DNA from: a virus
DNA: 64,000 nt
IMG/VR virus record: IMGVR_UViG_3300050014_000073
Coordinates: 19,141 to 83,140 of that record
Strand: one strand, 5' to 3'
Part shown: piece after piece, positions 2,159 through 55,895 of the stretch
Layout: each line of letters begins with the position of its first letter
Position numbering within the stretch: position 1 is the first letter of the stretch
The notes under the pieces: model-generated
Told to the model about the DNA's origin: nothing
Databases searched by the model: none
The model's input: the letters and a program-made list of their open reading frames with translations, nothing else
Made by a program: the position numbers and the translations under genes

Positions 2159-2767
2159 CTACTGGATGGGCTCTGGCCGCCTGCGCCGCATTAGACTCAA
2201 TGCCAAAAGTCCCGCCCCGAGCAGAAATAGCGAGGTTGGCTCAGGCGCATTGGAGGATGCCACGAAAGCCTGGGTGCCACTCCCGGCCACTGGCTCGATA
2301 TATTCCACCGAGCCGAAATTGAACGTTGGGATCTCGGAGCTTGCCGTCCAGAGGTAGGAAGCCATACTCGCGGTCGTCGCAAAGGCCCCCTGGTCGAAGA
2401 CGTTCCACATATCCTGCTGGATGTCGATCTGCGACTGCGGTGTAGGCGTTAGCAGTGTCGAAAGCACGCCAATCAATTCGTAGCCTTGGAGTGCTCCCCG
2501 ATCGGCGGAGAACATGCCGGAGGACGCCGCCTCGCCCAGCGTGTCGATATTGGCCATCCAGCTTTCGCCGGTTGTGATTTCGTTGAATAGGTCGTAGCAG
2601 TCGGCGGATATGTCCAGACTTCCGACTGTGAGAAAGTAAGGCAGAACGTAATCGGAGCCGTTGTTTACCCCGGTTGTCCCGTTGAATGTGACCTGAATCG
2701 TTTCCGCATTCAGGCAAATTGTACCCACCAATAAGGCCATGGCGAGCAGTTTAATCGTCGTTTTCAT
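2159..2767 (-). CDS. PEP-CTERM sorting-domain exported protein
   Basis: Signal peptide MKTTIKLLAMALLVGTICLNA; C-terminal APEPTSLFLLGAGLLALSLMRRRR (PEP + TM helix + Arg cluster); AGGAGG RBS upstream of ATG 2767. Confidence 0.9.
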   Translation of the reverse strand: MKTTIKLLAMALLVGTICLNAETIQVTFNGTTGVNNGSDYVLPYFLTVGSLDISADCYDLFNEITTGESWMANIDTLGEAASSGMFSADRGALQGYELIGVLSTLLTPTPQSQIDIQQDMWNVFDQGAFATTASMASYLWTASSEIPTFNFGSVEYIEPVAGSGTQAFVASSNAPEPTSLFLLGAGLLALSLMRRRRPEPIQ

Positions 2768-2980
2768 GTTGTGTTCATTCCTCCTGGGCGGATTACGCAC
2801 CGCCCCGCGCTGTACCTGGTCCACTAGATTCTGCAAGGCGTGATAGGTTTTCTCAAGCATCTTCGTCTCCTTTTTGATCCAGTTTCTAATCCCTTAATTT
2901 GCTCTCAGTCCGGGATCGACATTATTGGGACTTGCAAGATAGACTGTCATGTGTTTGCTCAACAGGGTGAGTCTTTAAAG

Positions 2981-3413: not shown

Positions 3414-4280
3414 TCATATCACAAGTTTTCTTGCAAGAACTCTTTGTATTCCAGCATCAGTATCAAGAACAGACCACGACTTGATTTTACTGCTTGCCTT
3501 CTTGATCTCTATAGCAATTGCTTCCGCGACGGCGGGAACGACTGCGTTCCCACACATTCGTTTACGAACGGCATCAGAAAATCCCGAAGTCCAGCCAATT
3601 GGAAATCCAAATCCGTATTCATACTCTTCCGCCAAAAGACGCCGTAACCCTTTTCCGGACTTCCAAACGAAATTTGCATTACGAACATTTCCGCCTTCTT
3701 GTGACATAAGACAACCCAAAACTGCATGTTGAACTTTAGACAGCGCTTTACGAGATGATGGATTAGTTGCTTGGACATGAAACATTCGAATTGCAGTTTT
3801 GGAAGTACAGCCAACGACAAAGGCTCTTTCGCGGTTTTGAGGTACAAATTGGGAGGCGTTCGCCCAGATAACAACGACTGCGTATCCGCAGGCTTCCAGT
3901 GCGAGAGCGAACTCGTTAACATTTGGTGAAGGAACATTCTCGCGGACCACCCACCGAGGCGCGAGTCGTGCTGCCACGGCAAGGTAGTATCCGGACAAGT
4001 CGGGATGACGGCTTTCATGATTTCCTTTCGCAATAGAGCGCGCGGGGCAGGGGTCTCCTCCGATGATTACATCTGGAACTGGAATGGGATTGTTCCCTAA
4101 AAGTCTAGTTTTTAGAAGATCCTTGACATCAGAATAAATTGGAACTCCAGGAAACTTGTTATGAAGCCGTTGACAGGATCGGTCTTTCTCACAGAACCAG
4201 ATTGTCTTGAATCCTGCGTTGCAAAAGCCGAGATCCATTCCTCCGATTCCTGAGAACAGACTTCCAACCGTCAGCTTCAC
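3414..4280 (-). CDS. DNA (cytosine-5)-methyltransferase
   Basis: Motifs FSGIGG (I), GGDPC (IV), ENV (VI), QNRERAF (VIII) and GNAVVP (X). Confidence 0.93.
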   Translation of the reverse strand: MKLTVGSLFSGIGGMDLGFCNAGFKTIWFCEKDRSCQRLHNKFPGVPIYSDVKDLLKTRLLGNNPIPVPDVIIGGDPCPARSIAKGNHESRHPDLSGYYLAVAARLAPRWVVRENVPSPNVNEFALALEACGYAVVVIWANASQFVPQNRERAFVVGCTSKTAIRMFHVQATNPSSRKALSKVQHAVLGCLMSQEGGNVRNANFVWKSGKGLRRLLAEEYEYGFGFPIGWTSGFSDAVRKRMCGNAVVPAVAEAIAIEIKKASSKIKSWSVLDTDAGIQRVLARKLVI

Positions 4281-9027: not shown

Positions 9028-9231
9028 ATGGAATCCTATGCACTTGTCATATCGGAACAGTATCGTATCCTAGTTCACGAAGCAGGACTGAAAGAGGGTC
9101 GGAGTGGGAAGATTATGTATCCCGGTCCACTTCCTGTAGGAGCAATCCTGAAAGCTGACTGGGATCAGGGAGTTGAAGAGGGTCTCAAGGTGTTCAAGCA
9201 ATCCAAGTCTCGCGAGAGGCTAGATTGCTAG
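9028..9231 (+). CDS. hypothetical protein
   Basis: 67-aa ATG ORF packed between neighbours. Confidence 0.45.
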   Translation: MESYALVISEQYRILVHEAGLKEGRSGKIMYPGPLPVGAILKADWDQGVEEGLKVFKQSKSRERLDC

Positions 9232-10022
9232 ACGTCATCACTTTCGGAGAGACGCTCTTACAAACACGGGACCTCGATCCAGTATACGTTATGCTGTACC
9301 GTTCTCAATTTTCGTTCTTCCAAAAAGAACGCTTTACCGTAGCGTACTGGCTATTCTATCATTCAGGAGTTTCTGCACTGCTTTCTGAAAAGATGGGGCA
9401 TGCGTTCTGGGACGCTTGCCAGGAACAGTTAACTCTTGCTCCAAGGGGAACGGAGAGACGACACTTCCGTGGATCTGCTGCAACGAAAGCAGTCCAGGCT
9501 CTTCATAGTCTCTATCCAGATCCTGAAGATTTTGTGGAAGCAATGTGTCCATCTCAGAGTACATGCGAGACGTTCCACACAGTTTCATCGCGAGTGGAAA
9601 AGCTTCCGCAGTTCGGACCTTGGATTGCTTTCAAAGTCTGTGATATGCTAGAACGTGTTCTAGATCGTCAGATTGATTCCTCAGGATGCATAGATCTTTG
9701 GTTTCGAGAGCCTCTTACTGGTGCAGAGAAAGCTGCTACTGCTTTCTCTCTTCCTTCCCGCGATGCTGCGATTCAGTTCCTTCTTGAGAAGTTTCATAGC
9801 TGGGGCGCTCCACCTGACTACAAGCGTAAAGTCAACTTGCAGGAGATCGAAACAATCTTATGCAAGTGGAAGGCACATCTTGGAGGCCATTACGAGATTG
9901 GGAAGGATACTTACGAGATATTGCATGGACTCCGAAAGTATTCCTCACGCTCTTCTAGTGCTGCGCACCTGATAGACTGTTTGCAAGAAGGGACTTTGTG
10001 CAAGAGGAATACTCTTTGCTGA
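9225..10022 (+). CDS. amino acid:DNA transferase (aGPT-Pplase2-like), thymidine hypermodification
   Basis: FGETLLQTRDLDPVY, AYWLFYH, PRGTERRHFRG, FGPWIAFKVCDMLER and QEIETILCKWK..GHYEIGKD motifs; beside the 5-hmdU DNA kinase. Confidence 0.85.
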   Translation: MLDVITFGETLLQTRDLDPVYVMLYRSQFSFFQKERFTVAYWLFYHSGVSALLSEKMGHAFWDACQEQLTLAPRGTERRHFRGSAATKAVQALHSLYPDPEDFVEAMCPSQSTCETFHTVSSRVEKLPQFGPWIAFKVCDMLERVLDRQIDSSGCIDLWFREPLTGAEKAATAFSLPSRDAAIQFLLEKFHSWGAPPDYKRKVNLQEIETILCKWKAHLGGHYEIGKDTYEILHGLRKYSSRSSSAAHLIDCLQEGTLCKRNTLC

Positions 10023-10597
10023 AACCACCTCACGTTCCGGTTATCAACATCCGTGGAGTAAACGGAAGTGGGAAGAGTTATCTAGTCCGTTCTTGGATGA
10101 AACTGCTTGGAGCGAAACCATATCCGCAGCGGTCAAATTTGTTTGGAGGAGAGACTGCAACTGGAGCGGAGTACTATTTGCTTTCAGACGATGGAAGGGT
10201 GATCGGGGACTACCGTACCAATTGCGGAGGCTGTGACCGCATCCACTCCCAAGATGAAGTTGCGGACCATATTCGGTTAGGGATTTCCTCTGGTTCACGT
10301 TACGTTCTGTTCGAAGGTGTGATTCTCTCAACAGTGTTTGAGTATTGGCATCAGTTCAGCCAGTCCATCAACGGGATGCTCTGGGTCTATCTTGACACCC
10401 CACTGGAAGTTTGTTTGAAGAGGGTTTCCGAGCGAAACAAGAACAAGGCATTCAAAGAGAATCTCGTTCGGGACAAGTTCCGGCAGGTTGCTTCCACGCG
10501 CCGTCGAGCAGAAGCCGCTGGAGAGAAAGTGTTTGAGATTCATTGGGAGAACGCAGAGAAAGAGCTAGAAAACCTCATAGCAGGATTAAACATATGA
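9998..10597 (+). CDS. P-loop nucleotide kinase associated with base-modification clusters
   Basis: INIRGVNGSGKS Walker A, CGGCDRI, VLFEGV, YLDTPLEVCLKRV..RN. Confidence 0.8.
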   Translation: MQEEYSLLKPPHVPVINIRGVNGSGKSYLVRSWMKLLGAKPYPQRSNLFGGETATGAEYYLLSDDGRVIGDYRTNCGGCDRIHSQDEVADHIRLGISSGSRYVLFEGVILSTVFEYWHQFSQSINGMLWVYLDTPLEVCLKRVSERNKNKAFKENLVRDKFRQVASTRRRAEAAGEKVFEIHWENAEKELENLIAGLNI

Positions 10598-10719
10598 AAC
10601 TTCCTAAAGTTCGTATGCTCCGGCAGATTCTATATTGGATGGAGGAGCGACAGAGACGAATGCGCCTGGCAAACGCCGCCGTATGGGTGTTACGGAAACA
10701 GAAGAGGAGACTTATATGA
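10594..10719 (+). CDS. 41-aa peptide paralogous to the N-terminus of the downstream kinase
   Basis: MKLPKVRMLRQILYWMEERQRR... versus MKLPPVRNLKKFLWFMEERQRV; ATGA overlaps at both ends. Confidence 0.55.
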   Translation: MKLPKVRMLRQILYWMEERQRRMRLANAAVWVLRKQKRRLI

Positions 10720-11633
10720 AGTTGCCTCCGGTAAGGAACTTGAAGAAGTTTTTGTGGTTTATGGAGGAGCGCCAAAGGGTTTATTTAAGGCGACAGGCAG
10801 GTGAACCTTATCCTTGGACTTCGGATCCCATCTTACGCCGCTTTCGATTTTGCAATGTTTATCGAGAGCAGGATCGGGTGACGACTTTTTGGCGAGAACG
10901 TTGGGCAAAGAAATACGCTGATCACTCGAACTTATGGTTTGCTGCTTGCTTGTTTCGGCACATCAACTGGCCCAATACGCTCGAAGAAATTGGATTCCCC
11001 AAAGAGTGGAATCCTCGTAAGGTCCTTCGCATTCTCGAGAAGCGGAAAGCACGGGGAGATAAAGTCTACACAAGTGCTTATCTTCTCGGAGGCGGAAACA
11101 CCAAGCATGAAACCAAAGTCCGCTACACGGTGATGACAGTATTGAATCCTGTGTGGAAGTGGGTTGAGAAGGCTCTTCCTGGAACGGGTCGTATTGCTCC
11201 TTGGTTAACTGACGGAACTGATGACGTTCCCTGTACGTTACGCGAAATGTTCGATTGGCTCTGCCAGTTCCACGGCTTCGGGAAGTTTCTCTCCTACGAA
11301 ATCGTCACCGATCTTCGTCATACTCGTTATCTATGCAACGCTCCTGACATAATGACTTGGGCGAATCTCGGTCCGGGAGCGCAGCGCGGATTGAACCGTC
11401 TTTACGAACGGGAGCTGAATCAGTCACATCCCCAGGCTCAGCTTCTCGAAGAGCTTCTGGCAATTCAAGAGTGGGTGGTTAAGAACCGTGATTCGAGAGT
11501 TCTTCCTACGATAGAGCCACGAGATCTCGAACATAGTTTTTGCGAGTGCGACAAACTTCTTAGAGCCAAGGAGCGCCTTGTGCAAGGACGTATAATCGGT
11601 CTAGAAAGATTCAGACATCCAGGCTTGATTTGA
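10716..11633 (+). CDS. 5-hydroxymethyluracil DNA kinase (aGPT-Pplase1 / 5-HMUDK)
   Basis: FMEERQ..Y.RR..GEPYPWTSDPILRRFRFCNVYREQDRVT, FRHINWP, AYL, GKFLSYEIVTDL, GPGAQRGLNRL, DLEHSFCECDK. Start 10716 follows an AGGAG RBS. Confidence 0.9.
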   Translation: MKLPPVRNLKKFLWFMEERQRVYLRRQAGEPYPWTSDPILRRFRFCNVYREQDRVTTFWRERWAKKYADHSNLWFAACLFRHINWPNTLEEIGFPKEWNPRKVLRILEKRKARGDKVYTSAYLLGGGNTKHETKVRYTVMTVLNPVWKWVEKALPGTGRIAPWLTDGTDDVPCTLREMFDWLCQFHGFGKFLSYEIVTDLRHTRYLCNAPDIMTWANLGPGAQRGLNRLYERELNQSHPQAQLLEELLAIQEWVVKNRDSRVLPTIEPRDLEHSFCECDKLLRAKERLVQGRIIGLERFRHPGLI

Positions 11634-11651
11634 CGAAGGAGAAATCATAAC

Positions 11652-12134
11652 ATGATAAACGCAAGTGAGTTTTACGGACCGCGCCGTCTCAAGGCGCGAA
11701 ACAACAATACGCTGCTCAAGGGCAACATGATCCCGCGACGGTTCAAGTCCATCGTCATTCGTGTGACGGGAGTTCGTTCAGCTCCTTCTGACTGGGACTG
11801 CCGGCTTATTCTGGACTTCGATTTCCATCCCGAAGCTCTCGAAGCTCTTCGAGGATCGGAAGCAGCTAGTGCTCATTCCTGGGCTGTAAACAAGACTAAT
11901 GGCCAGCGGCTTCGTTCGTACTTATCAGCTTCTGACGACTTCGAGGAACTGGTCGACTGCCGTGTCCGTCTCAAGGTCATTCCGCAACGTGACCCGAAGT
12001 CGGGCGAGCGTGTTCGTTCGCTGGAAGTGACTTCTCTAGCACGCGAAGGGTCAACTCATTGGGAAGTGCTGGCCTCCTCCGGTAGAGATTGCGGAAGAAG
12101 ACGAAACGTATTTTTCGTATCCTCCTGTTTTTGA
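11652..12134 (+). CDS. putative single-stranded DNA-binding / OB-fold phage protein
   Basis: WAVNKTNGQRL...DD.EEL.DCRVRL.....DPKSGERVRSLEV resembles a common phage SSB-like family (LNKTN motif). Confidence 0.45.
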   Translation: MINASEFYGPRRLKARNNNTLLKGNMIPRRFKSIVIRVTGVRSAPSDWDCRLILDFDFHPEALEALRGSEAASAHSWAVNKTNGQRLRSYLSASDDFEELVDCRVRLKVIPQRDPKSGERVRSLEVTSLAREGSTHWEVLASSGRDCGRRRNVFFVSSCF

Positions 12135-12156
12135 GGAGGAGAAAACGGAACTGTTT

Positions 12157-13050
12157 TTGAAGATCTTCATCCCCACTAAAGGACGTCCGGTTCGGATCAG
12201 TACTCACAAGTACTTCCCTTCCGCTTACGTTGTTGTACACAACGAGCAGGAAGCGGAGCAGTATCGCGCGAATGCAACGATCGATCCTAAACGGATTCTC
12301 ATTAGTGGAGCGAAGACCGATGCGTTCGGCCTAACTCGACAACGTGAATGGGTGTGCCAGACGCAAGCAAAGAAGAATGAGTGGATTCTGTTCGCTGACG
12401 ATAACATCTATTACTTGCTAGCGATGGATAAGGAACACTATGGTTTTCCAGAAGTTCTACTGACGGCAGACCATACCAGATTGTCGGAAGAAGAGAAAGC
12501 GACGGCTCGCAAGGAAGGTGCGATCTGGCGTCCTCGTTTCAACACGCGAGTCCCGGTAGAACGGTTCTTGAGGGAGATCGTTCCGGATACAGTTTCTCAT
12601 TGTGAGATTATCGGAGCACACCTTGCAGGGTTTTCTCTTACAGATAACATCTTATTTCGGCGAAAGAAGTTTGTTGACGTCGGATACGTCATAGGCAAGT
12701 TGATGCTCTGGCACAACACTGGGCATGTCCCCTTCGACCATACAGTCACGATGGAAGACTTCTATCACACAGCCGAGAACCTGAAGCGATACGGAGTTTG
12801 CGTAGTAAACAACTTCGTTGCGGTCCGCCCGACGAATTGTCACTATCTTCCAGGCGGAATGGGAACGTATGACGAGCGAGTTCCGTATCGCAAGCGGGAC
12901 GTGGAAACTTTGTTAGCACGGTATCCTGGGATGTTGGCAGTGAAGGACAGAGAGGGATTTGTTCCAGGAACTGACTTGCGTCTTCTCTTGCATTCACGTG
13001 AGGATGTTCAACGATGGCAACGAGCGCAGAAGCGCACAAGATTGTTTTAG
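12157..13050 (+). CDS. GT-A glycosyltransferase of the TET-associated (TAGT)/GREB1/JGT-like type
   Basis: KIFIPTKGRP, GLTRQREWV, ILFADDN (DxD-like), MEDF, GGM; sits inside the DNA-modification operon. Confidence 0.75.
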   Translation: MKIFIPTKGRPVRISTHKYFPSAYVVVHNEQEAEQYRANATIDPKRILISGAKTDAFGLTRQREWVCQTQAKKNEWILFADDNIYYLLAMDKEHYGFPEVLLTADHTRLSEEEKATARKEGAIWRPRFNTRVPVERFLREIVPDTVSHCEIIGAHLAGFSLTDNILFRRKKFVDVGYVIGKLMLWHNTGHVPFDHTVTMEDFYHTAENLKRYGVCVVNNFVAVRPTNCHYLPGGMGTYDERVPYRKRDVETLLARYPGMLAVKDREGFVPGTDLRLLLHSREDVQRWQRAQKRTRLF

Positions 13051-13056
13051 GAGGAT

Positions 13057-14082
13057 TTGATGCGAACTGTGGATCTTAGTCGTGGTGAGCAGGTTCGTCT
13101 GTTCAACGGTTTGGCAATCGAGATTGCAAGCAAGTGCAATCGAACTTGCTACTTCTGCCCGAACGGATACAACCAGCGTGAAGATGTCTTCATGCTGGAG
13201 GAAACGGTCTCACGTTTGCTGGAAGAGCTCTCACGCTTGAAGTACTCTGGGCGTATCGAGTGGTACATCTACAACGAACCGACACGTGACGAACGGCTGA
13301 AGATGTTCATTCGTTGGGCGCGAGTTCAGGTTCCGCGCGCTTGCCAGATGATCAACACGAACGGTGACTATTTCAAGGATAAGTTTGACATCGCTGCATT
13401 GTTCTTTGCTGGTCTCAATCAGATGCAGATCAACATCTACAGCGCGCAGGATAACGCAGAGAATGATAAGACGTTTGAGAACGGCGTTGCGCAAGCGCGA
13501 AAGCGTGAAGCGCAGCTACAATCGTGGGTTGATAAGATCTCCCCAACAATGAATATCCATTCGGATGCGAGTCTCTACTTGAACTCAGGCCCGCGAAAGC
13601 GTATTTGCAAAGTCGTGGCGAAGTATGGCGTCCGTCCCAGTTTCAAGGATAGTGATCTCGAGGGGCCAAATCACTTCTCGAACCGCAGTGGAAACATTCC
13701 TGGTTTCCGCAATGGGCTTACAGAACCACTGAAGAAGATGTGTGTGCGCCCGTTCAGGTTTCTCAATATAGATTACCAGGGCGATGCCCTTCTTTGTTGT
13801 AACGACTACCATGGAGTTGTTAAGATCGGGAACGTGAAGGACCATACGCTGGTGGAATTGTGGAACTCTTCGGTTCTCAATCGTTATCGTGTCAAGTTGC
13901 AAGGTCATGATCGTAATTCAGCACTGTGCGACAAATGCGACTACAACGGGGGACACTATCAACATCAGGTGGGACACGTTACGACGGGGTCAGCGGAACA
14001 GGATGTGGAGTGGGTACAGGAGCCGTTTTATCCGGGCGGACTGGTTCAGATCGCGCCGAAGACGGATAAGAGGTTGATTTAG
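13057..14082 (+). CDS. radical SAM enzyme with SPASM/twitch domain
   Basis: CNRTCYFC (CxxxCxxC), YNEP, NTNG; C-terminal CVRPF...GDALLCCND...IGNV...ELWNS...CDKC. Confidence 0.92.
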   Translation: MMRTVDLSRGEQVRLFNGLAIEIASKCNRTCYFCPNGYNQREDVFMLEETVSRLLEELSRLKYSGRIEWYIYNEPTRDERLKMFIRWARVQVPRACQMINTNGDYFKDKFDIAALFFAGLNQMQINIYSAQDNAENDKTFENGVAQARKREAQLQSWVDKISPTMNIHSDASLYLNSGPRKRICKVVAKYGVRPSFKDSDLEGPNHFSNRSGNIPGFRNGLTEPLKKMCVRPFRFLNIDYQGDALLCCNDYHGVVKIGNVKDHTLVELWNSSVLNRYRVKLQGHDRNSALCDKCDYNGGHYQHQVGHVTTGSAEQDVEWVQEPFYPGGLVQIAPKTDKRLI

Positions 14083-14220
14083 AGCTATTACGGATTGCTA
14101 GGTCGTTTCCGTGGCATCCGGTTTGTGGAAAGTACCGTATAACTAGTCTAGCGACGGTCCTAGGGTCGCTAAACACAAACGTCTTCGACTTCTTTCTGGA
14201 AATCGGAAAGGAAAGAAACA

Positions 14221-15234
14221 ATGCAAGTAATACGAGTAAGAAACATCAACCAAGCGTGGGATCATGCAAAGATCCTTCTCAATGCCAATCACACAACTCG
14301 TCCCAGTCGGGTCGGGGAGGTGATTGAATACCCCGACCCAGTCACGACGGTCTACGAGAAGCCGTGTGAGCGTGTCCTCTTCAATGAGAAGCGGAATGCT
14401 AATTGCTTTTTCAATTTCATGGAAGCAATGCATATGCTTGCGGGCCGAAATGATGTCGCGTGGCTGGAACGATTCAATTCCAAGATTCGCGATTTCATCG
14501 GTAACGTGGAAGTGCAGCATGGTGCATACGGCTACCGCTGGCGAAAGTTCTTCGACATGGACGGGGGCGCAGAGGATGACTATGCGGACCAGATTCTCAA
14601 GATCATTCGGATGCTGAAGAAGAACCCCGATGAACGCCGCGCTGTTCTTACCATGTGGAGTCCGTTGGCGGACTTGGAACGACCAGATCTTGCAGACGTG
14701 CCGTGCAATTTGATCTGCACGTTCAAGATTCGAGGCGGTGCTCTCGACATGATTGTCTTCTGTCGTTCAAATGACATTGTGTTTGGCGCGTATTCTGCAA
14801 ATCAAGTGCACTTCAGCTTTCTGCTGGAGTACATGGCTTCTATGATCGGAGTACCGGTTGGGCGTTACTTTCAGATCTCGGACTCTTGGCACGCTTACAC
14901 TTCTCGTTGGTCCGAATTTGGCGGTCTTGATCCCACTCCGACGATTGATCGCTATGCGTTGGGCATGGTTCCGTTCCCGCTGGTTGATCATCCTGAGACG
15001 TGGGACGAAGATCTGAAGCGGTGGATGGAACGAGACTTCACGCAAGAGTTCTCCAATCGGTTCTTCTCACGAGTTGCTGAGCCGATGTGGCTCTCATGGT
15101 CAGAATACAAGCATAACAATCTCGACAACGCAATTAGGGTTATACGGAATTGTGATGCAGCTGACTGGCGCTGGGCGGGAACAGAGTGGTTGCTCAACAT
15201 CCAGAGGAAGCGAGCAGAGAAGGGGAAGAAATGA
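14221..15234 (+). CDS. thymidylate-synthase homolog, probable dUMP hydroxymethylase
   Basis: GAYGYRWR, RRAVLTMW, DVPCN (catalytic Cys), RSNDIVFGAYSANQVHFS with Asn at the dUMP-specificity position, HAY. Confidence 0.88.
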   Translation: MQVIRVRNINQAWDHAKILLNANHTTRPSRVGEVIEYPDPVTTVYEKPCERVLFNEKRNANCFFNFMEAMHMLAGRNDVAWLERFNSKIRDFIGNVEVQHGAYGYRWRKFFDMDGGAEDDYADQILKIIRMLKKNPDERRAVLTMWSPLADLERPDLADVPCNLICTFKIRGGALDMIVFCRSNDIVFGAYSANQVHFSFLLEYMASMIGVPVGRYFQISDSWHAYTSRWSEFGGLDPTPTIDRYALGMVPFPLVDHPETWDEDLKRWMERDFTQEFSNRFFSRVAEPMWLSWSEYKHNNLDNAIRVIRNCDAADWRWAGTEWLLNIQRKRAEKGKK

Positions 15235-15422
15235 GACAGGAAGATCCAAAGTCGACTTTAATTGAACGATTTCGGGTATGGCGTCTCTTCTGGGTTGCTT
15301 GCCGTGTCCCGAGACGGAACGATCTCTATATCAACAAGAACGGCTTGCTTCAACGTTGTAAGACGACGAACTACTCGCGTCGCGCTCAAAAGCGTACAAT
15401 TGTGAAAGAGGGATGGAAGTGA
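15231..15422 (+). CDS. hypothetical protein
   Basis: ATG overlaps the stop of the TS homolog; 63 aa. Confidence 0.45.
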   Translation: MRQEDPKSTLIERFRVWRLFWVACRVPRRNDLYINKNGLLQRCKTTNYSRRAQKRTIVKEGWK

Positions 15423-16009
15423 AGAATCTTTTTGAAAATCTGATGTGGTTCCGAAGATTTGGTTCAACGAGACGCTTCCATTCTGAGACGTTCATCGGAA
15501 CACCAGAGACAGTTCTACACCACTCTGCTAGTACAGCTCTTATCCTGATTCAGGTCTTAGGAGAAAACGTCTCCGTCAACTTGCTCAAGGCTGCTCTGTG
15601 CCACGATCTCGAAGAGGGACTTACAGGCGACGTCCCCGCGCCGGTCAAGTGGGCTATTGGAAATACGTTCGAAGAGTTGGAGCGTCGGATTCGTGTGTTC
15701 CACGATATTCCGTTCCCAGGATTGAACGGCGAGGAACAGCATCAGCTCAAGGCTGCGGATTTTCTGGACTGCGCGATGACGTGTCTCATGCAGCGAAAGA
15801 TGGGGAACTCTCTAATTGATACGGTTTTCGAGAACTTAGTCGAGTATGAAAACCGAAGTCCGATCTTGGGCTACGTTGAGACAATTCTGTTCCTCTATCT
15901 CTGGCGAGAAGTCAAAGCGGAATACAGACAGACGGTTAGCGGAAGCCGATATGGAAGCGTCGGTCACCCCTTCTGGAGTCAAGATGCCAAAAGTGAGAAG
16001 CAAAGCTGA
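15413..16009 (+). CDS. HD-domain deoxynucleotide phosphohydrolase (YfbR/DatZ-like)
   Basis: RRFH...ETVLHHS...ALCHDLEEGLTGDVPAPVK...LKAADFLD. Confidence 0.85.
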   Translation: MEVKNLFENLMWFRRFGSTRRFHSETFIGTPETVLHHSASTALILIQVLGENVSVNLLKAALCHDLEEGLTGDVPAPVKWAIGNTFEELERRIRVFHDIPFPGLNGEEQHQLKAADFLDCAMTCLMQRKMGNSLIDTVFENLVEYENRSPILGYVETILFLYLWREVKAEYRQTVSGSRYGSVGHPFWSQDAKSEKQS

Positions 16010-16601
16010 GTTCTTCCGGCTGTCACAGGAAATGGTCTTCGGGAATCGTCTTCAGCAATTCGGGTGGAAACTCTTCGATGAAATGTTTCAAGACTGCCGG
16101 AACGCAAGATGTATTGGTCGCGAACCTTGGTACGATAGCGAACTTCCTCCTATGCCTGAAAAGGTCAGTGTTAGGAACGTACTTGCAGGTGGCGATGAAC
16201 GGGTTCAACGGTATCGTCTCGGACCAGCTTTCGCTCATGCTCATTGTGTCTCGTTGATCAAGACCCACATCGTCACTCCTGAACAGCTCATACTTGATGA
16301 GAGTGCTCCAGATCATCTAGTCACGTTGCAAGCAGAAGTCCGGAATAGCGAAAGGTTTATTGACATGCGATTCGCGCTGCATTCTGGAGTAGGGATGCGA
16401 CCTGCTTATGCCGCAATGAAGCCCGTGAGTGGGATTCGGGCCGTGACAATCCTGAAAGAGTACCTGGACGCACCGTCTTGGGACAACCTCTGTGAAATTC
16501 TTCATGTATATAGCGAAAGTGTCGTAGAGCTGAGTTCGTACTCAGTTCCAGTAGGAGTTCTGGGTCTCTCGACAATTATTTGGGAAGTGAGGAATTATTG
16601 A
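15984..16601 (+). CDS. hypothetical phage protein
   Basis: MPKVRSKAEFFRL...IIWEVRNY; RBS GGAG before ATG 15984. Confidence 0.6.
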   Translation: MPKVRSKAEFFRLSQEMVFGNRLQQFGWKLFDEMFQDCRNARCIGREPWYDSELPPMPEKVSVRNVLAGGDERVQRYRLGPAFAHAHCVSLIKTHIVTPEQLILDESAPDHLVTLQAEVRNSERFIDMRFALHSGVGMRPAYAAMKPVSGIRAVTILKEYLDAPSWDNLCEILHVYSESVVELSSYSVPVGVLGLSTIIWEVRNY

Positions 16602-47077: not shown

Positions 47078-47713
47078 ATGACTTCCACCTTCATCATTGG
47101 CGGCGGTCCTTCAGCTCAGGAGTTTGACTTCTCAGTCATTGGCAATCATCAGGTCATTCTTGTGAACGGTCACTATCACTTCTGCGTAAAGACTGCGGCT
47201 GCGTTGTTTTCTCTTGACCGCAAGTGGATTCTACGCAGCCGCGATTTTATCACTTCATGGAAGGGACCGAAGTTCCTGGCAACTCCCGTGATGGAATGGC
47301 TCAATCCTCCGATCCCAGGAGTAGCATACCTGAAGACTGACAGCGCGAAGGGTTTGAGCGATGACCCGAATACCGTTCGAGGAAACAACTCCGGCCACGC
47401 AGCCCTGAACCTCGCAGTTCATCAGGGAGCCAAACAGATCTATCTCGTTGGGTTCGACATGGACTCAACAGTAGATTCCCATGAGCACGAGTTCCCGTAC
47501 TGGATCGACGACTTCCGCAAAACAGTTCCATTCCTGGAAGCAAAAGGAATCTCGGTCATCAACTTGAACAAAAACTCTACAATAGACGCCTTCCCGCGAC
47601 TTACGGTTCAGGAAGCAGGAATTGGCCGTTTAGCGATCCTAGGATGCGTTGCAGTTGACAGCCCTATGAAATATACCTTTTCGACCTCTCCGGACTGTCC
47701 TGCGGTCGCCTAG
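47078..47713 (+). CDS. Maf/MptE-like (CstII-fold) glycosyltransferase-like protein
   Basis: FIIGGGPS, VN, NSGHAALNLA..GAKQIYLVGFDM. Confidence 0.7.
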   Translation: MTSTFIIGGGPSAQEFDFSVIGNHQVILVNGHYHFCVKTAAALFSLDRKWILRSRDFITSWKGPKFLATPVMEWLNPPIPGVAYLKTDSAKGLSDDPNTVRGNNSGHAALNLAVHQGAKQIYLVGFDMDSTVDSHEHEFPYWIDDFRKTVPFLEAKGISVINLNKNSTIDAFPRLTVQEAGIGRLAILGCVAVDSPMKYTFSTSPDCPAVA

Positions 47714-49747: not shown

Positions 49748-50422
49748 ATGATCTATACAGTTCCCAAATCTTGGCAAGGTGAAACTTGCGTCATTCTTGC
49801 AGGCGGTCCTTCACTTCGAGACTTCTCGCGATTCCCATCTTGGATTACTGACAGTAAATGCCGAGTCATTGCAATCAATGACTCCTGGCGCCTCTGGCCC
49901 TACTCTGATGTCTGCTACTTCTGCGATCCGCAGTGGTGGCAGTATCAGTTAGCGAAGAACCTTCGGGACAAACCAACCGGGACGTTCAGCTTCCATGATG
50001 CGATCTACAAGGAGTTCTGGATCTCCACTGCTCCCGGTTTTGAGCATCATCCACAAGTTCACACTCTCAAGTTCAACGGACAGACAGGTCTCTCAACTGA
50101 CCCGACAGCTCTTCATCATGGATCGAACAGTGGATTTGCCTGCATCAACCTTGCCGCGCTTTTCGGAGCCAAGCGGATTGTCCTTCTCGGATATGACATG
50201 AAATGCGACAAGACAGGACGGACCCACTGGCACGATGAACCAAGACCCGATGGCTTCGCAAGGGTTCTCGAACAGTCAATGCTTCCTCTTTTCAGTACTC
50301 TCGTCACACCGTTGGAGGAAGCTGGAGTTGAAGTTATCAACGCAACTCCCGATTCGGCGCTTACCTGTTGGAAATACCAACCTCTCGAAGAGGCTCTGCA
50401 ACTCACTTCAATCAAGGAGTAA
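49748..50422 (+). CDS. Maf/MptE-like glycosyltransferase-like protein (paralog of 47078)
   Basis: VILAGGPSL, IAINDS, NSGFACINLA..GAKRIVLLGYDM, VINATPDSAL. Confidence 0.72.
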   Translation: MIYTVPKSWQGETCVILAGGPSLRDFSRFPSWITDSKCRVIAINDSWRLWPYSDVCYFCDPQWWQYQLAKNLRDKPTGTFSFHDAIYKEFWISTAPGFEHHPQVHTLKFNGQTGLSTDPTALHHGSNSGFACINLAALFGAKRIVLLGYDMKCDKTGRTHWHDEPRPDGFARVLEQSMLPLFSTLVTPLEEAGVEVINATPDSALTCWKYQPLEEALQLTSIKE

Positions 50423-52624: not shown

Positions 52625-53262
52625 GCCGAATATTTTTAGACTGGAATCTTGGTTTGGGGGATGCGATTCTCTGTAACGGCCTGGTCCGTGAGCTGGCCAA
52701 GAACCATGAGTTTATCGTTCTTCCCGTCAAGCATTCTTTGGAACTTAGCGTCAGACAATTGTTTTCCGATTTGAAGAACGTAGCTTATCTTCCGGTGGAC
52801 GGAGACAGTGTCAGGGAGGTCGAAGGACTGACGACTCTAAGAATCGGACTGCATGCTCATCCCCCACCACGGACAATATATTTCGACGAGGGTTTCTATA
52901 TGCTAGCCGGAGTTCCGTATGACTGCCGGTGGTCGAGTTTCCAGGTCCCCTCTCCTCCTGATCCTCTCTCTGACCGTCCACAGTGTTTAGTAGCGGAAGA
53001 ATGGAGTGGGGGTCACTGCTCCATTCCAGTAGAGGGATTGCGTCTCGATTCCAAACGGACTCCTGTTCTTACCAATTGGATTCCGGTAATTCAAGCTGCG
53101 GAGGAGATTCACTGTATTGACTCGGCTCCGATGCATCTGATAGAGTCCGTTCCCACAAAAGCACGGTTGTTCTTTTGGAATGAGCTGCGGAAAGGCTCTA
53201 ACTTCGCCCGTCGAAAAGCTTGGAGATACCGGGGGCTGATTGAAGGCTGGATGAATGCGTGA
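52621..53262 (+). CDS. GT-B (GT9-like) glycosyltransferase
   Basis: LGLGDAILCNGLVR and AEEIHCIDS motifs. Confidence 0.62.
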   Translation: MSRIFLDWNLGLGDAILCNGLVRELAKNHEFIVLPVKHSLELSVRQLFSDLKNVAYLPVDGDSVREVEGLTTLRIGLHAHPPPRTIYFDEGFYMLAGVPYDCRWSSFQVPSPPDPLSDRPQCLVAEEWSGGHCSIPVEGLRLDSKRTPVLTNWIPVIQAAEEIHCIDSAPMHLIESVPTKARLFFWNELRKGSNFARRKAWRYRGLIEGWMNA

Positions 53263-54134
53263 ACCTGATTGCTACCATGCCGTGTCGTAATGAAGAATGG
53301 TGTCTAGGACTGACTCTTCAGGCCATCCTTCAGTGGGTGGACACAGTAGTGGTTCTCGACCATGCGAGTACAGATCATTCCCGAGAGATCATCCAGGAAA
53401 TCCAGAACGAGAATCGGAACCGTGTCGTCTTCCTTACCGACGACGATCCTACCTGGCACGAAATGGCTCATCGACAGCGGATGCTAGAGGAAGCAAGGAA
53501 GCAGGGAGCGACTCACATTGCTCTCATCGACGCAGACGAAATCCTTACAAGCAACCTTGTAAGCAGCGCACATCGACGGATTACTTCTGTATGTGCGGAC
53601 ATCACAGTCGAGTTTCCTTGGCTCTGCTTGAGCAAGTCTACTGATCGAGTATACGCAGCTGGAACTTGGGGTGGGTCTTTTGTCTCAACAGCGTTCTGTG
53701 ATTTCCCACATCTCCACTGGTCAAGCACTGAACGAAACGGATATGACTTCCACCGGCGTCATCCTCTCGGAAGAGATACCGGGCCGTTGCGGTTCTTCGC
53801 AGACCGTTCAGCAGGCGTAATGCATCTTCAGTTTGTCAATGATCGAAGGCTCCGTGCTAAGCAGTATCTCTACCAATTAACCGAGCGCCTTCGCTGGCCG
53901 AATCGTGAACCAATTCCGGAGACTCGAAAGCGGTATACGTTCACTGTTGAGCAATCCGAGAGTATTCAGACAAAACAGGTTCCAGCAGACTGGTGGAACG
54001 GATACGAAAACCTGATGCAGTTCTTACAAGTGGATGCTGAACCTTGGCAGTTGTTGGAGTGCCATCGGCTGCTGAAAGAAAATCCAGGACTCGGAACGGG
54101 CTTGAATGATTTTGGAGTGATGGAGGATCTATGA
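53259..54134 (+). CDS. family 2 glycosyltransferase
   Basis: MPCRNEE, VVLDHASTD, IDADE. Confidence 0.85.
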   Translation: MNLIATMPCRNEEWCLGLTLQAILQWVDTVVVLDHASTDHSREIIQEIQNENRNRVVFLTDDDPTWHEMAHRQRMLEEARKQGATHIALIDADEILTSNLVSSAHRRITSVCADITVEFPWLCLSKSTDRVYAAGTWGGSFVSTAFCDFPHLHWSSTERNGYDFHRRHPLGRDTGPLRFFADRSAGVMHLQFVNDRRLRAKQYLYQLTERLRWPNREPIPETRKRYTFTVEQSESIQTKQVPADWWNGYENLMQFLQVDAEPWQLLECHRLLKENPGLGTGLNDFGVMEDL

Positions 54135-54327: not shown

Positions 54328-55071
54328 ATGAAATTCTCCGTCACAGCTTTCATGTGTGTGTTCAACGAGGCAGACATTTTGCCTTGGACGATTCGTCATC
54401 TCATTGCTCAGGGAGTTGACGTTCACGTCATCGACAATTGGTCTAGCGATGCTAGTCCTGCGATTGCACAGAGTTTTCCGTTGATTGGATGGGAACGGTT
54501 TCCAGCGGACGGCCCTTCAAAGTATTTCTCCTTGCGAGCACTCTTGCATCGAGTTGAAGACTTAGCTGAAGTATCGAAAGCAAACTGGTGCGTTCATCAT
54601 GACGCGGACGAAATCCGTCGATCAAATGTTCCTGGTGAAAGACTTGTCGAAGCGTACCAGCGATCTGCCTACGAAGGCTACAACGCCGTCAACCACCGGA
54701 CCTATGTCTTCTATCCGACGGACGAAGGCTACCAAGGCAACCCCGAAAACTATTTCCGATACTACACCGACGACACGATGCGAAGGATCAATGCCTGGCA
54801 GAACTCCGGGCATACTGGACGAGTTGATCTAGCTTCCACCGGAGGACATGCTGTCAGATTCCCACGAATGCAAGTCCATCCGCAAAAACTCATCTTGAAG
54901 CACTACCCAATTCGCAACTCCGTTCAAGGGGAACGCAAGGTCATTCATGAACGACTGGAACGTTATGATCCAGTGGAATTGAAGATGGGCTGGCACGTTC
55001 AATACACGGATCAGCAGTGGATCCGAAATCCTGCTTCTCTGAGTCTCTATAGCGGGCCGGACGGCGGGTAG
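54328..55071 (+). CDS. family 2 glycosyltransferase
   Basis: VFNEADIL, IDNWSSD, HDADE, LKHYP. Confidence 0.85.
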   Translation: MKFSVTAFMCVFNEADILPWTIRHLIAQGVDVHVIDNWSSDASPAIAQSFPLIGWERFPADGPSKYFSLRALLHRVEDLAEVSKANWCVHHDADEIRRSNVPGERLVEAYQRSAYEGYNAVNHRTYVFYPTDEGYQGNPENYFRYYTDDTMRRINAWQNSGHTGRVDLASTGGHAVRFPRMQVHPQKLILKHYPIRNSVQGERKVIHERLERYDPVELKMGWHVQYTDQQWIRNPASLSLYSGPDGG

Positions 55072-55169: not shown

Positions 55170-55895
55170 ATGAGCAATGGAGCCACCTTAATCACCGCTA
55201 CGGGAGGGCGACCGGAGGCTTTTCGGTTATGCCTCCGGTGGATGGAACGTCAGACCTGGAAGGATCCAATTCAGTGGATTGTAGTTGACGACTTTGAAGC
55301 TCCAAGTGAAGTTCCTCCGTTCCTGAAAGGCAATCCGGTTCTTTGTCTCCGACCGAAGCCCTTTTGGAAATTCGGACAGAACACTCTCGCACGGAATCTT
55401 CTCACGGCAATTCCTCATGTTGCACATGGAAGAGTTCTGTTCATCGAAGATGATGATTGGTATGCTCCCGACTATATTGCGTTCATGATGGGACGGTTGG
55501 AACATCAAGATGTTGTCGGAGAAACTCGCGCTCATTACTATCATCTTCCGACACGACGCGGTTCAATACTGAAAAACCTTTTCCATGCAAGTCTCTGCCA
55601 GACGGGAATCAAGTCAGAACTGCTTTCTACACTGAAACAAATCTGTGAGACCCCGGCTGGAAACTTCTTCGACGTGCGGCTTTGGTCGAACGCAATTGCT
55701 GATGAGGATGTAATCACGGATCTTGTCGAGAGTACTCGCTGCATCGGAATCAAGGGTCTTCCGGGACGGCCAGGAATTGGAGTTGGTCACCGTCCTGATC
55801 TAATGCGTGAGGGCTGGACGAAAGATGCTGATCTTTCCCTTCTACGAAGTTGGATTGGGGATGACGTGGAAGCATATCGTGAGTTTCTAAGATGA
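55170..55895 (+). CDS. family 2 glycosyltransferase
   Basis: ITATGGRP, WIVVDD, FIEDDDWYAPDYI. Confidence 0.82.
   Translation: MSNGATLITATGGRPEAFRLCLRWMERQTWKDPIQWIVVDDFEAPSEVPPFLKGNPVLCLRPKPFWKFGQNTLARNLLTAIPHVAHGRVLFIEDDDWYAPDYIAFMMGRLEHQDVVGETRAHYYHLPTRRGSILKNLFHASLCQTGIKSELLSTLKQICETPAGNFFDVRLWSNAIADEDVITDLVESTRCIGIKGLPGRPGIGVGHRPDLMREGWTKDADLSLLRSWIGDDVEAYREFLR

Follow-up and report, generated by a model that had tools for sequence, protein, structure and literature searches.

A phage thymine-modification gene block with a predicted DNA glycosyltransferase and a BtrN-like radical SAM enzyme

Which base does a phage make when the genes of a known thymine-hypermodification pathway share one gene block with a predicted DNA glycosyltransferase (GT) and a radical S-adenosylmethionine (SAM) enzyme? 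The question is raised by eight co-directional open reading frames (ORFs) at positions 9225-16009 (+) of a 64,000-base stretch of viral DNA, here called the window, which constitutes bases 19141-83140 of the 83,140-base IMG/VR virus record IMGVR_UViG_3300050014_000073, a linear record that CheckV rates as about 80% complete. The answer favored here, with slightly more confidence than doubt, is that two branches act on 5-hydroxymethyldeoxyuridine (hmdU): an amino acid:DNA transferase (AADT) would leave an amine adduct that is not tailored further, and the GT would form a glycosyl-hmdU whose sugar is oxidized or epimerized by the radical SAM enzyme (rSAM). The phage DNA probably holds a sugar-bearing base that has not yet been described.

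An earlier note on this block, made from the letters alone, had named seven gene types, all of which are borne out by the ORF list and the Pfam matches; the list was incomplete, an eighth ORF (11652-12134) between the PF18723 gene and the GT gene having been overlooked. When family hidden Markov models were run, PF18724, PF20691 (TAGT), and SPASM all matched proteins of the block. The products that had been proposed, either glycosyl-hmdU together with an amino-acid adduct or a sugar that the rSAM has altered, are favored by the comparative data, namely the BtrN homology of the rSAM and its GT company in clusters devoid of an AADT, the product itself being a prediction.

The radical SAM enzyme and the glycosyltransferase

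The rSAM belongs to a family of 225 database clusters (E <= 1e-3; median isoelectric point 8.6), and an ATG at 13060 yields the 340-residue form found in the database. There, the identical protein is also recorded on contigs of up to 95,403 bases. The cluster motif CNRTCYFC occupies residues 27-34, and its CxxxCxxC is invariant in an alignment of 46 sequences, in which the invariant cysteines fall at positions 26, 30, 33, 228, 246, 247, 290, and 293. The C-terminal domain of the window protein holds five cysteines (229, 247, 248, 291, and 294) and has no CX5CX3C after the CxxC. A full SPASM domain is characterized by a seven-cysteine motif. Since five C-terminal cysteines are sufficient for one auxiliary cluster, the enzyme is, to judge from its sequence, a Twitch-like protein with one auxiliary [4Fe-4S] site and not a two-cluster SPASM protein; only the first half of the earlier label "radical SAM/SPASM" therefore stands.

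A family profile built from the 46 members matches BtrN (4m7s/4m7t) in the PDB with E 1.1e-37 and 133 bits in two blocks, corresponding to the core and the auxiliary-cluster domain. At a threshold of E 0.01, only 6y1x (E 2.3e-4) passes besides the two BtrN chains, and anSME is not among the matches. The AlphaFold2 model (pLDDT 90.5) has BtrN 4m7t as its top Foldseek match as well (E 5.7e-17, TM 0.82 by target, 24% identity), the runners-up PqqE, BlsE, SuiB, anSME, EpeE, and SpeY following at E 1e-7 or worse, ten orders behind. BtrN and the related SpeY are dehydrogenases, BtrN oxidizing a secondary alcohol of 2-deoxy-scyllo-inosamine; the substrate of BlsE is a sugar nucleoside, and in NeoN, a related epimerase of sugars, a cysteine serves as the hydrogen donor. 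The rSAM family carries an invariant CC pair where BtrN has a single cysteine. From this homology and from the GT neighbors found in eight of nine locus types (see below), we infer that the rSAM would oxidize a secondary alcohol of a sugar-like substrate. The protein matches the PADLOC pVip model weakly (E 2.9e-7) and shows no relation beyond the superfamily to M6 gp53, the radical SAM isomerase of phage M6 (blastp E 9.6 over 18 residues).

The GT scores 37.2 bits against the Pfam model of the TET-associated glycosyltransferases (TAGT, PF20691; cut-off 27.5), and its family comprises 49 database clusters, all metagenomic, 26 of which carry a precomputed PF20691 match. Across 39 aligned sequences, R10, D81-D82-N83, and D201-F202 are invariant, and E200 is kept in at least 90%. 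The AlphaFold2 model (pLDDT 95.9) adopts a GT-A fold, with VIA Z scores of 11-13.5 to GT2-type transferases over 164-219 residues (rmsd 2.9-5.7; ranks 1-14). TarP and TarS are the top Foldseek matches in the PDB, and the viral structural neighbors in BFVD are phage proteins with a TAGT domain (TM 0.6-0.83). Phage GT-A DNA transferases and the JGT of T. cruzi share an R...DDD...EDY/F motif, as given in the legend to Fig. 4 of bioRxiv 10.1101/2023.12.21.572611 (hereafter the GT-A preprint); the R...DDN...EDF of the window protein resembles it, by pattern only, with an invariant Asn at the place of the third Asp. The same preprint describes TarP as the top PDB match and JGT as the top AlphaFold match of the published phage GT-A enzymes, and its section 9 reports thousands of GT-A contigs that adjoin 5mYOX or ThyS genes. 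Because GT-A pathways with thymidylate-synthase-like genes have already been reported there in bulk, the presence of a GT is not new by itself; the earlier claim of an unfamiliar enzyme set holds for the set as a whole, which is real and was not found in the literature searched. By analogy with its surroundings, that is, the thymidylate-synthase-like (TS-like) gene in the cluster and the Tet_JBP genes beside distant members of the family, the GT is inferred to transfer a sugar to a 5-hydroxymethylpyrimidine in DNA.

The gene neighborhoods of both proteins were collected from IMG/VR by alignment-based scans, single-protein scans with the GT or the rSAM having given nothing usable. For the rSAM, at least 533 relatives were obtained, of which the best 80 were kept (L050-L060 with 37-49% identity, L061-L129 with 25-30%). 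The 11 closest loci represent nine distinct types, L050/L060 and L056/L057 being near-duplicates. In these, the rSAM gene lies beside a TS-like gene and a PF18723 gene (L050/L060, L051, L052, L053, and L054), beside a Tet_JBP gene (L056/L057, L058, and L059), or beside a second, larger radical SAM gene (L055); all nine types lie in 5-hydroxymethylpyrimidine clusters of uncultured phages. A glycosyltransferase is found within about 2 kb of the rSAM in eight of the nine; it is of the TAGT type in L051, L052, L054, L055, L056/L057, L058, and L059, and of the GT-B type in L050/L060. Since the rSAM pairs with either GT fold, it can be argued that it needs the sugar rather than a particular protein partner. 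In addition, L050 encodes an NAD-dependent sugar epimerase/dehydratase, and in L052, a methyltransferase of the FkbM type separates the rSAM gene from the TAGT gene. In L060 (3448-5548), which is 98% identical to L050 (8646-10948), the GT-B and BtrN-like genes each appear broken into two frames, which could reflect decay or a sequencing error.

The locus closest to the window, L006, has the order PF18723, GT (51% identity), rSAM (72%), TS-like (65%), and HD (56%), followed by a homologue of ORF 15846-16601; it is devoid of the small ORF 11652-12134, and its upstream side is truncated by the contig end. Among the 46 loci seeded with the GT (L005 and L019 are one contig), a BtrN-like enzyme is adjacent in six; 27 of these loci are less than 5 kb long, too short to judge. 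The contigs of four close relatives of the GT and of four rSAM relatives agree in length (17361, 2950, 4550, and 68330). Distant GT members, with 26-30% identity, occur in marine loci with the layout ParB, ParB, GT, Tet_JBP, and the Tet_JBP cluster appears in 15 loci. ParB-dependent thymine dioxygenases, which form 5-hydroxymethyluracil (5hmU), have the same arrangement of genes according to PMC13229309.

Adjacent to the TAGT-like GT, or fused with it, other loci encode a second radical SAM protein (about 410-450 residues), in many cases together with a ParB_N-like gene (Table 1). It has a CxxxCxxC close to its N-terminus and matches Radical_SAM (E 6e-6 to 2.5e-4) and, weakly, DUF1848; in L158, it accompanies ParB-like, P-loop kinase, and AADT genes, and in L055, it is interrupted by inteins. 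Because it occupies the place of Tet_JBP in the marine ParB-ParB-GT-TET loci, it may, by analogy, be an oxygen-free maker of 5-hydroxymethylpyrimidine. A relationship to M6 gp53 and spore photoproduct lyase was considered for it and is not supported (blastp E 5.9-7.1).

The GT and rSAM genes travel apart from the AADT branch. Concerning their INDEPENDENCE from the AADT branch, PF18724 matched none of the 13 records with GT or rSAM loci, four of which are rated 100% complete, and the same search was positive on the phage's own record as a control. The PF18748 kinase was found in one of these 13 records, and a thymidylate-synthase-family gene in nine. In the other direction, the window AADT was used as a seed and gave 59 IMG/VR loci (33-44% identity), which contain the kinase (54/59), PF18723 (49/59), a TS-like gene (45/59), a gp53-type radical SAM enzyme (23/59), and a gp52-type pyridoxal phosphate (PLP) enzyme (17/59), and a BtrN-like enzyme in no case. 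A TAGT-type GT is present in two of them (L130:4555-11500 and L182:10001-18000). L182 also carries M6-type PLP and radical SAM genes, and both loci are devoid of a BtrN-like enzyme. Among the loci examined, the AADT branch and the GT/rSAM branch occur together only in the window.

The core shared with phage M6 and the rest of the record

The families of the block were called with Pfam, PHROGs, and NCBIfam (Table 1). The ORFs overlap or are separated by gaps of at most 178 bases (ORF list), and the common strand and these short gaps are the only basis for the status of the block as an operon. Promoter-like and terminator-like sites show no enrichment over shuffled sequence, an Rfam search gave no match, and no close relative at the DNA level was found among deposited phages.

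Table 1. Features of the gene block, its flank, and a second radical SAM protein of related loci (coordinates in the window unless preceded by a locus name)
Feature	Position	Strand	Match
AADT (amino acid:DNA transferase; aGPT-Pplase family; M6 gp51 homologue)	9225-10022	+	PF18724 E 2.1e-16
P-loop 5-hmdU DNA kinase (M6 gp54 homologue)	9998-10597	+	PF18748 HMUDK_HMUD1 E 1.9e-14
HMUDK_hel helical protein (M6 gp55 homologue), accessory	10635-11633	+	PF18723 E 1.9e-51
Small conserved phage ORF, 160 aa	11652-12134	+	without family match
TAGT/JGT-like GT-A DNA glycosyltransferase (predicted)	12157-13050	+	PF20691 E 3.8e-9
BtrN-like Twitch radical SAM enzyme	13057-14082	+	SPASM E 4.4e-12, Radical_SAM E 4.1e-5
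Thymidylate-synthase-like pyrimidine hydroxymethylase	14221-15234	+	PF00303 Thymidylat_synt E 3.8e-21; phrog_5131 E 7.9e-93
YfbR-like HD-domain nucleotide hydrolase (M6 gp59 homologue)	15413-16009	+	PF12917 E 4.6e-9
Conserved ORF 3' of HD gene	15846-16601	+	without family match (Pfam, PHROG, NCBIfam)
Second radical SAM protein	L004:10001-12085, L012, L018 (fusions); L007:215-1447; L014:1314-2669; L023:821-2062; L049:1051-2355; L055:5060-8425; L158 ~1863

Five genes of the block have homologues in Pseudomonas phage M6: gp51, gp54, gp55, gp58, and gp59 match the record with 37, 41, 40, 43, and 31% identity, respectively (tblastn against the whole record; E 7e-17 to 1.5e-75). The AADT aligns with gp51 at E 1.6e-53, beginning at window position 9207, before the first listed start codon, and scores 60.8 bits against PF18724 (cut-off 26.2). 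Its sequence matches in the PDB are 25qc (E 5.6e-48) and 8z2m, the glycinyltransferase gp46 of PaMx11 (E 1.1e-43). Read off the 8z2m alignment, six of the seven gp46 residues named in PMC11472151 are kept (R94, H95, R97, W146, F173, and C247), the catalytic cysteine aligned to C247 among them, and a Glu stands where gp46 has D175. A search of deposited phages with the AADT gave 97 records, the best being M6-like Pseudomonas phages with 37-38% identity; the hydroxymethylase leads to the same phages with 42-43% identity.

The earlier note was right that a 5-hmdU DNA kinase is present, and had attached the name to the wrong gene: the kinase is the P-loop protein of the M6 gp54 family, and the gene so labeled encodes the PF18723 helical protein of the gp55 family. 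The P-loop protein scores 54.1 bits against PF18748 (cut-off 27), bears the Walker A motif GVNGSGKS, and aligns with gp54 at E 4.4e-37; the name "terminase small subunit" that PHROG assigns to it goes back to an old annotation of gp54. Neither it nor the PF18723 protein has solved relatives that could be found by sequence. Table 1 of PMC8989533 lists gp54 of M6 as the 5-hmdU DNA kinase and gp51 as the glycine:DNA transferase, and lysates with these two proteins alone formed N-alpha-glycinylthymidine (N-alpha-GlyT), gp55 being dispensable (PMC8989533); gp55 itself is listed as aG/PT-PPlase in Table 3 of PMC5889632. A PF18723 gene also lies beside the GT or rSAM and TS-like genes of L050, L051, L052, L054, and L060, in records devoid of the PF18748 kinase and the PF18724 AADT, one of which, G007, is rated 100% complete. 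Because the family occurs in such records, its name "kinase helical domain" may be misleading.

The TS-like hydroxymethylase aligns with gp58 over residues 1-334 and has an Asn where the CMP hydroxymethylase MilA (5b6d) has an Asp. This position presumably sets the specificity for uracil or cytosine, corresponding to N177 of thymidylate synthase, and the enzyme most likely acts on dUMP, as its sequence suggests. No Tet_JBP gene was found in the record, which leaves the hmdU of the TS-like enzyme as the sole evident hydroxymethylpyrimidine. The HD hydrolase has a weak PHROG match to dATP triphosphohydrolase, and homologues of it occur in 21 of the 59 AADT loci. Homologues of the ORF that follows it in the table lie 3' of TS or HD genes in L006 (26%, residues 47-249), L167, L170, and L172 (tblastn); its true start is probably near 16000.

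The small ORF has 21 representative homologues at E <= 1e-3 and no Pfam, PHROG, NCBIfam, or PADLOC match; in Atlas, it gave viral hypothetical clusters only and a weak DUF669 lead at 0.81. A database form identical over residues 1-151 has 152 residues, eight fewer than the window ORF. In several relatives, the C-terminus is an acidic ...D[IV]PF tail resembling the one of the bacterial single-stranded DNA-binding protein (SSB), and the window copy has a different end. As a candidate for the missing tailoring enzyme, the small ORF was rejected: it has no enzyme family match, it is missing from L006, its relatives resemble small DNA-binding proteins, and its PDB profile matches are at chance level (E >= 0.32). 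It is probably not a tailoring enzyme.

None of the tailoring enzymes known from M6 was found in the 83,140-bp record: gp52 (PLP decarboxylase) and gp53 (radical SAM isomerase) have no tblastn match, gp53 none even at E <= 1. M6 gp56 has none either. Likewise, PF00291 (PALP), PF01041 (DegT/DnrJ/EryC1), PF00155 (Aminotran_1_2), PF01266 (DAO), and PF00583 (GNAT) gave no match at E <= 1 in the whole record, and each of these searches gave matches in every one of the 14 control genomes. Among the 118 crude ORFs of the record, the 50 that were scanned with Pfam include no PLP, flavin, or acetyltransferase enzyme, and the record holds a single Radical_SAM gene. The earlier statement that no PLP, flavin, or acetyltransferase gene is present, which the note had made for the block and wished to see extended to the rest of the genome as regards PLP, thus holds across the available 83 kb by M6 tblastn and Pfam models. 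What the note had regarded as odd in this is less so, because AADT products can stay untailored as end products, according to PMC13458397.

Several other genes of the record touch on DNA modification or glycosylation. A C5 cytosine DNA methyltransferase (PF00145, E 6.7e-33) is encoded at 3414-4280 (-) of the window, in a record without a TET/JBP gene, and the phage may methylate C besides modifying T. That the GT might serve a TET pathway on the 5-methylcytosine of this methylase was rejected, given the lack of Tet_JBP. Ten ORFs scanned in the structural module include GT2-family genes (53259-54134, 54328-55071, and 55170-55895) and MptE/Maf-like genes (47078-47713 and 49748-50422), which could serve virion glycosylation or the extension of a DNA-bound glycan. 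Upstream of the window, the record (L003) encodes a family A DNA polymerase in two ORFs (L003:14135-17055 (-)), the first with an N-terminal uracil-DNA glycosylase (UDG) domain. UDG-PolA fusions have recently been linked to phages with T-modified genomes, as reported in PMC13697223. In L055, a similar UDG-exo-PolA gene with a Hint domain directly follows the TAGT-rSAM pair. A RecA-like gene with an intein splicing domain lies at L003:9971-11695 (-), and a 233-residue ORF at 2159-2860 (-) of the window carries a PEP-CTERM sorting motif at its end (PF07589, E 1.3e-5), which is unusual in a phage gene.

A two-branch pathway and its alternatives

In the pathway favored here, the TS-like enzyme would make 5-hydroxymethyl-dUMP, the HD hydrolase would, by homology, trim the competing nucleotide pool, and hmdU would enter the DNA. 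Along the first route, the P-loop kinase would phosphorylate hmdU in DNA, and the AADT would exchange the phosphate for an amine nucleophile, as in the biochemistry of M6 and PaMx11. Glycine would be the most likely nucleophile because the nearest characterized relatives of the AADT are glycine transferases, and a diamine is possible; the nucleophiles described for AADT relatives comprise glycine, serine, putrescine, and diaminopropane (PMC8989533, PMC13458397). As no tailoring enzyme follows the AADT, the adduct would be the end product. Along the second route, the GT would use a nucleotide sugar as donor and glycosylate the hydroxyl group of hmdU, as its family membership and neighborhood suggest, giving a base-J-like nucleotide. 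The rSAM would then abstract a hydrogen from a carbinol carbon of the sugar to produce a keto sugar or an inversion without oxygen, with either the DNA-bound sugar or the nucleotide-sugar donor as its substrate. The GT and the BtrN-like enzyme would form a portable module; in other uncultured phages, it would be fed by one of three neighbors, namely a TS-like enzyme, a dioxygenase of the TET/JBP type, or a further radical SAM protein, whose role is unproven.

A broader reading, held more tentatively and falling somewhat short of an even chance, extends this module beyond the window: the GT and BtrN-like pair would be a widespread and so far unrecognized oxygen-independent device that adds a radical-tailored sugar, such as a keto or epimerized hexose, to 5-hydroxymethylpyrimidines in DNA. 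It would be fed by TS-like enzymes, by TET/JBP or, perhaps, by the second radical SAM protein with ParB, and the present phage would be the first seen to run it alongside a kinase/AADT branch.

Several points weigh against the two-branch pathway. All of its chemistry is deduced from sequence and gene context, and the nucleophile of the AADT is a guess. The PF20691 match covers only residues 1-89 of the GT, and its motif was compared with those of the published GTs by pattern, without an alignment to their sequences; moreover, some TAGT-family enzymes (of the T6 type) add a second sugar onto a first and not onto the base, as described in PMC13390438. Given 24% identity to BtrN, the rSAM may differ from it in chemistry, and the extra invariant cysteine hints at something besides plain dehydrogenation. 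The substrate of BtrN is a free small molecule, and action of the rSAM on a DNA-bound sugar is unproven. The rSAM of the L053 type shows no glycosyltransferase, and 40 of the 46 GT-seeded loci show no rSAM, the long L004 and L005/L019 among them. Finally, with the record about 80% complete, the sequence not recovered could still contain a PLP gene or another tailoring gene.

Four other explanations were weighed, and the AADT-free relatives together with the steady company of sugar enzymes weaken every one of them. An unlikely one, albeit the strongest of the four, is that the rSAM tailors the amino adduct, for example, by oxidizing the C-N bond of N-alpha-glycinyl-thymine to an imine, whose hydrolysis would yield 5-aminomethyl-dU, as an oxygen-free stand-in for the flavin lyase of PaMx11, with the GT acting separately on leftover hmdU. 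BtrN-type and anSME-type enzymes carry out two-electron oxidations next to a heteroatom. The presence of the AADT and the kinase without any other tailoring enzyme is consistent with such a role, as are the appearance of anSME among the fold matches and the location of the M6 and PaMx11 tailoring genes within the same cluster. However, rSAM relatives occur in all 13 records without a PF18724 AADT, four of them complete, and in none of the 59 AADT loci; moreover, the rSAM gene of the window adjoins the GT gene and not the AADT gene, which runs straight into the kinase gene.

Somewhat less probable still is that the rSAM oxidizes the 5-hydroxymethyl group of hmdU, or of 5-hydroxymethyldeoxycytidine, to a 5-formyl group as anSME does on serine, the GT being independent or competing. 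This would account for the rSAM always standing beside a gene that makes hydroxymethylpyrimidine or is so placed (TS-like, Tet_JBP, or the second radical SAM protein), directly after Tet_JBP in L056-L059, and for the anSME fold match. It leaves unexplained the company of GT-A and GT-B enzymes, of the sugar epimerase/dehydratase, and of the FkbM methyltransferase, and the sequence homology of the rSAM is specifically to BtrN (E 1e-37) and not to anSME at E 0.01.

It is improbable that the GT and the rSAM do not act on DNA at all and produce a virion or host-surface glycan or a viperin-like nucleotide, their position in a region of nucleotide metabolism being incidental. The further GT2-like and Maf/MptE-like genes in the structural module and the weak pVip match of the rSAM point in this direction, as do the approximately 65% of GT contigs that section 9 of the GT-A preprint reports without a neighboring base-modification enzyme. 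Nevertheless, the pair, or the rSAM alone, is embedded in hydroxymethylpyrimidine-synthesis genes in all nine locus types, the GT belongs to the TAGT family with TAGT-domain proteins as its nearest viral structural neighbors, and the pVip score lies far below the BtrN match. Equally improbable is a single linear pathway to one compound base, in which the GT would glycosylate the residue installed by the AADT or the AADT would attach a sugar amine made by the GT and the rSAM: all genes do form one tight co-directional block, and two of the 59 AADT loci (L130 and L182) also have a GT of the TAGT type, placed between the PF18723 gene and the TS-like gene, but the GT and rSAM pair occurs in genomes without AADT and PF18748 kinase, such as the 100% complete G007, and an N-linked glycine offers, on chemical grounds, no hydroxyl acceptor.

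Significance and relation to known systems

The tailoring enzymes of thymine hypermodification listed in PMC13458397 as of August 2026 are radical SAM isomerases, PLP decarboxylases, flavin lyases, and acetyltransferases. If the two-branch pathway is correct, a BtrN-type sugar-tailoring rSAM would be a new class of tailoring enzyme and its product probably a new kind of DNA sugar; if the broader module also exists, it would represent a new chemical class of DNA base, and two hypermodifications of thymine with unrelated chemistry would coexist in one genome. Searches of 50,697 deposited phage genomes gave no match to the GT and one to the rSAM, at 25% identity, and, there being no close relative of either among them, the product would never yet have entered a mass spectrometer. 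New DNA sugars bear on the resistance of phages to restriction and CRISPR enzymes, on host readers of modified DNA, and on DNA-labeling tools. The comparative set of L006 and L050-L059, with three records rated 100% complete, offers concrete genes for expression.

In the literature searched, supplements excluded, no paper on a GT and BtrN-like rSAM pair in phage DNA modification was found. Under another label, the rSAM gene may already figure in the neighbor tables of the GT-A preprint (Fig. S10, Tables S4-S5) or in the gene-cluster drawings of PMC8989533. The preprint mentions "annotated viperins (pVip)" near GT pathways and presents them as immune genes; that some of these belong to the BtrN-like rSAM family of the window is a guess.

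The GT-A enzymes of the preprint share with the window GT the GT-A fold, the TarP match, and a ThyS-like neighbor, and resemble it in the R...DD(D/N)...ED(F/Y) pattern. The work described there concerns sugars on 5-hydroxymethylcytosine (5hmC), and ThyS-linked GT-A contigs appear in bulk only; its text places no BtrN-like enzyme, kinase, or AADT beside the GT, and the term "radical SAM" occurs zero times in the main text. The sugar-bearing, T-derived bases of SP-15, YerA41, and Carin-5 (PMC12686479, PMC13697223) provide a further parallel, as do the UDG-PolA fusion and the extra glycosyltransferase-like genes, which the record of the window also has. As described there, these phages differ in carrying an oligosaccharide on a hydroxypentyl linker plus phosphate and in their genome sizes of 145-222 kb; the text of the Carin-5 paper contains "radical SAM" zero times and mentions no BtrN-like enzyme.

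The predicted glycosyl-hmdU likens the window to the base J system of kinetoplastids (JBP1/2 and JGT), the link between the GT and JGT running through Pfam and the GT-A preprint. In contrast to base J, the hmdU would come from a pre-replicative TS-like enzyme and not from a dioxygenase, and the rSAM probably alters the sugar. BtrN, the 2-deoxy-scyllo-inosamine dehydrogenase of butirosin biosynthesis (4m7s, 4m7t), bears CNRTCWYCPNS where the window rSAM has CNRTCYFCPNG, and the auxiliary-cluster cysteines of the two are aligned. The window protein is about 90 residues longer, with about 40 extra profile positions between the aligned blocks, and its context is a phage DNA-modification cluster rather than a set of aminoglycoside genes.

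The closest parallel in gene order is the 5-NedU cluster of M6, which, as given in PMC5889632 and PMC8989533, shares with the window the sequence AADT ... kinase, PF18723, ..., TS-like, HD. The two differ in that homologues of gp52, gp53, and gp56 were not found in the 83-kb record, the slot between AADT and kinase being empty in the window, whereas the GT, the BtrN-like rSAM, and the small ORF are inserted between the PF18723 and TS-like genes. Hypermodification of hmdU and glycosylation by TAGT enzymes are thus already known, and what the window adds is the BtrN-like tailoring enzyme and the combination of two branches.

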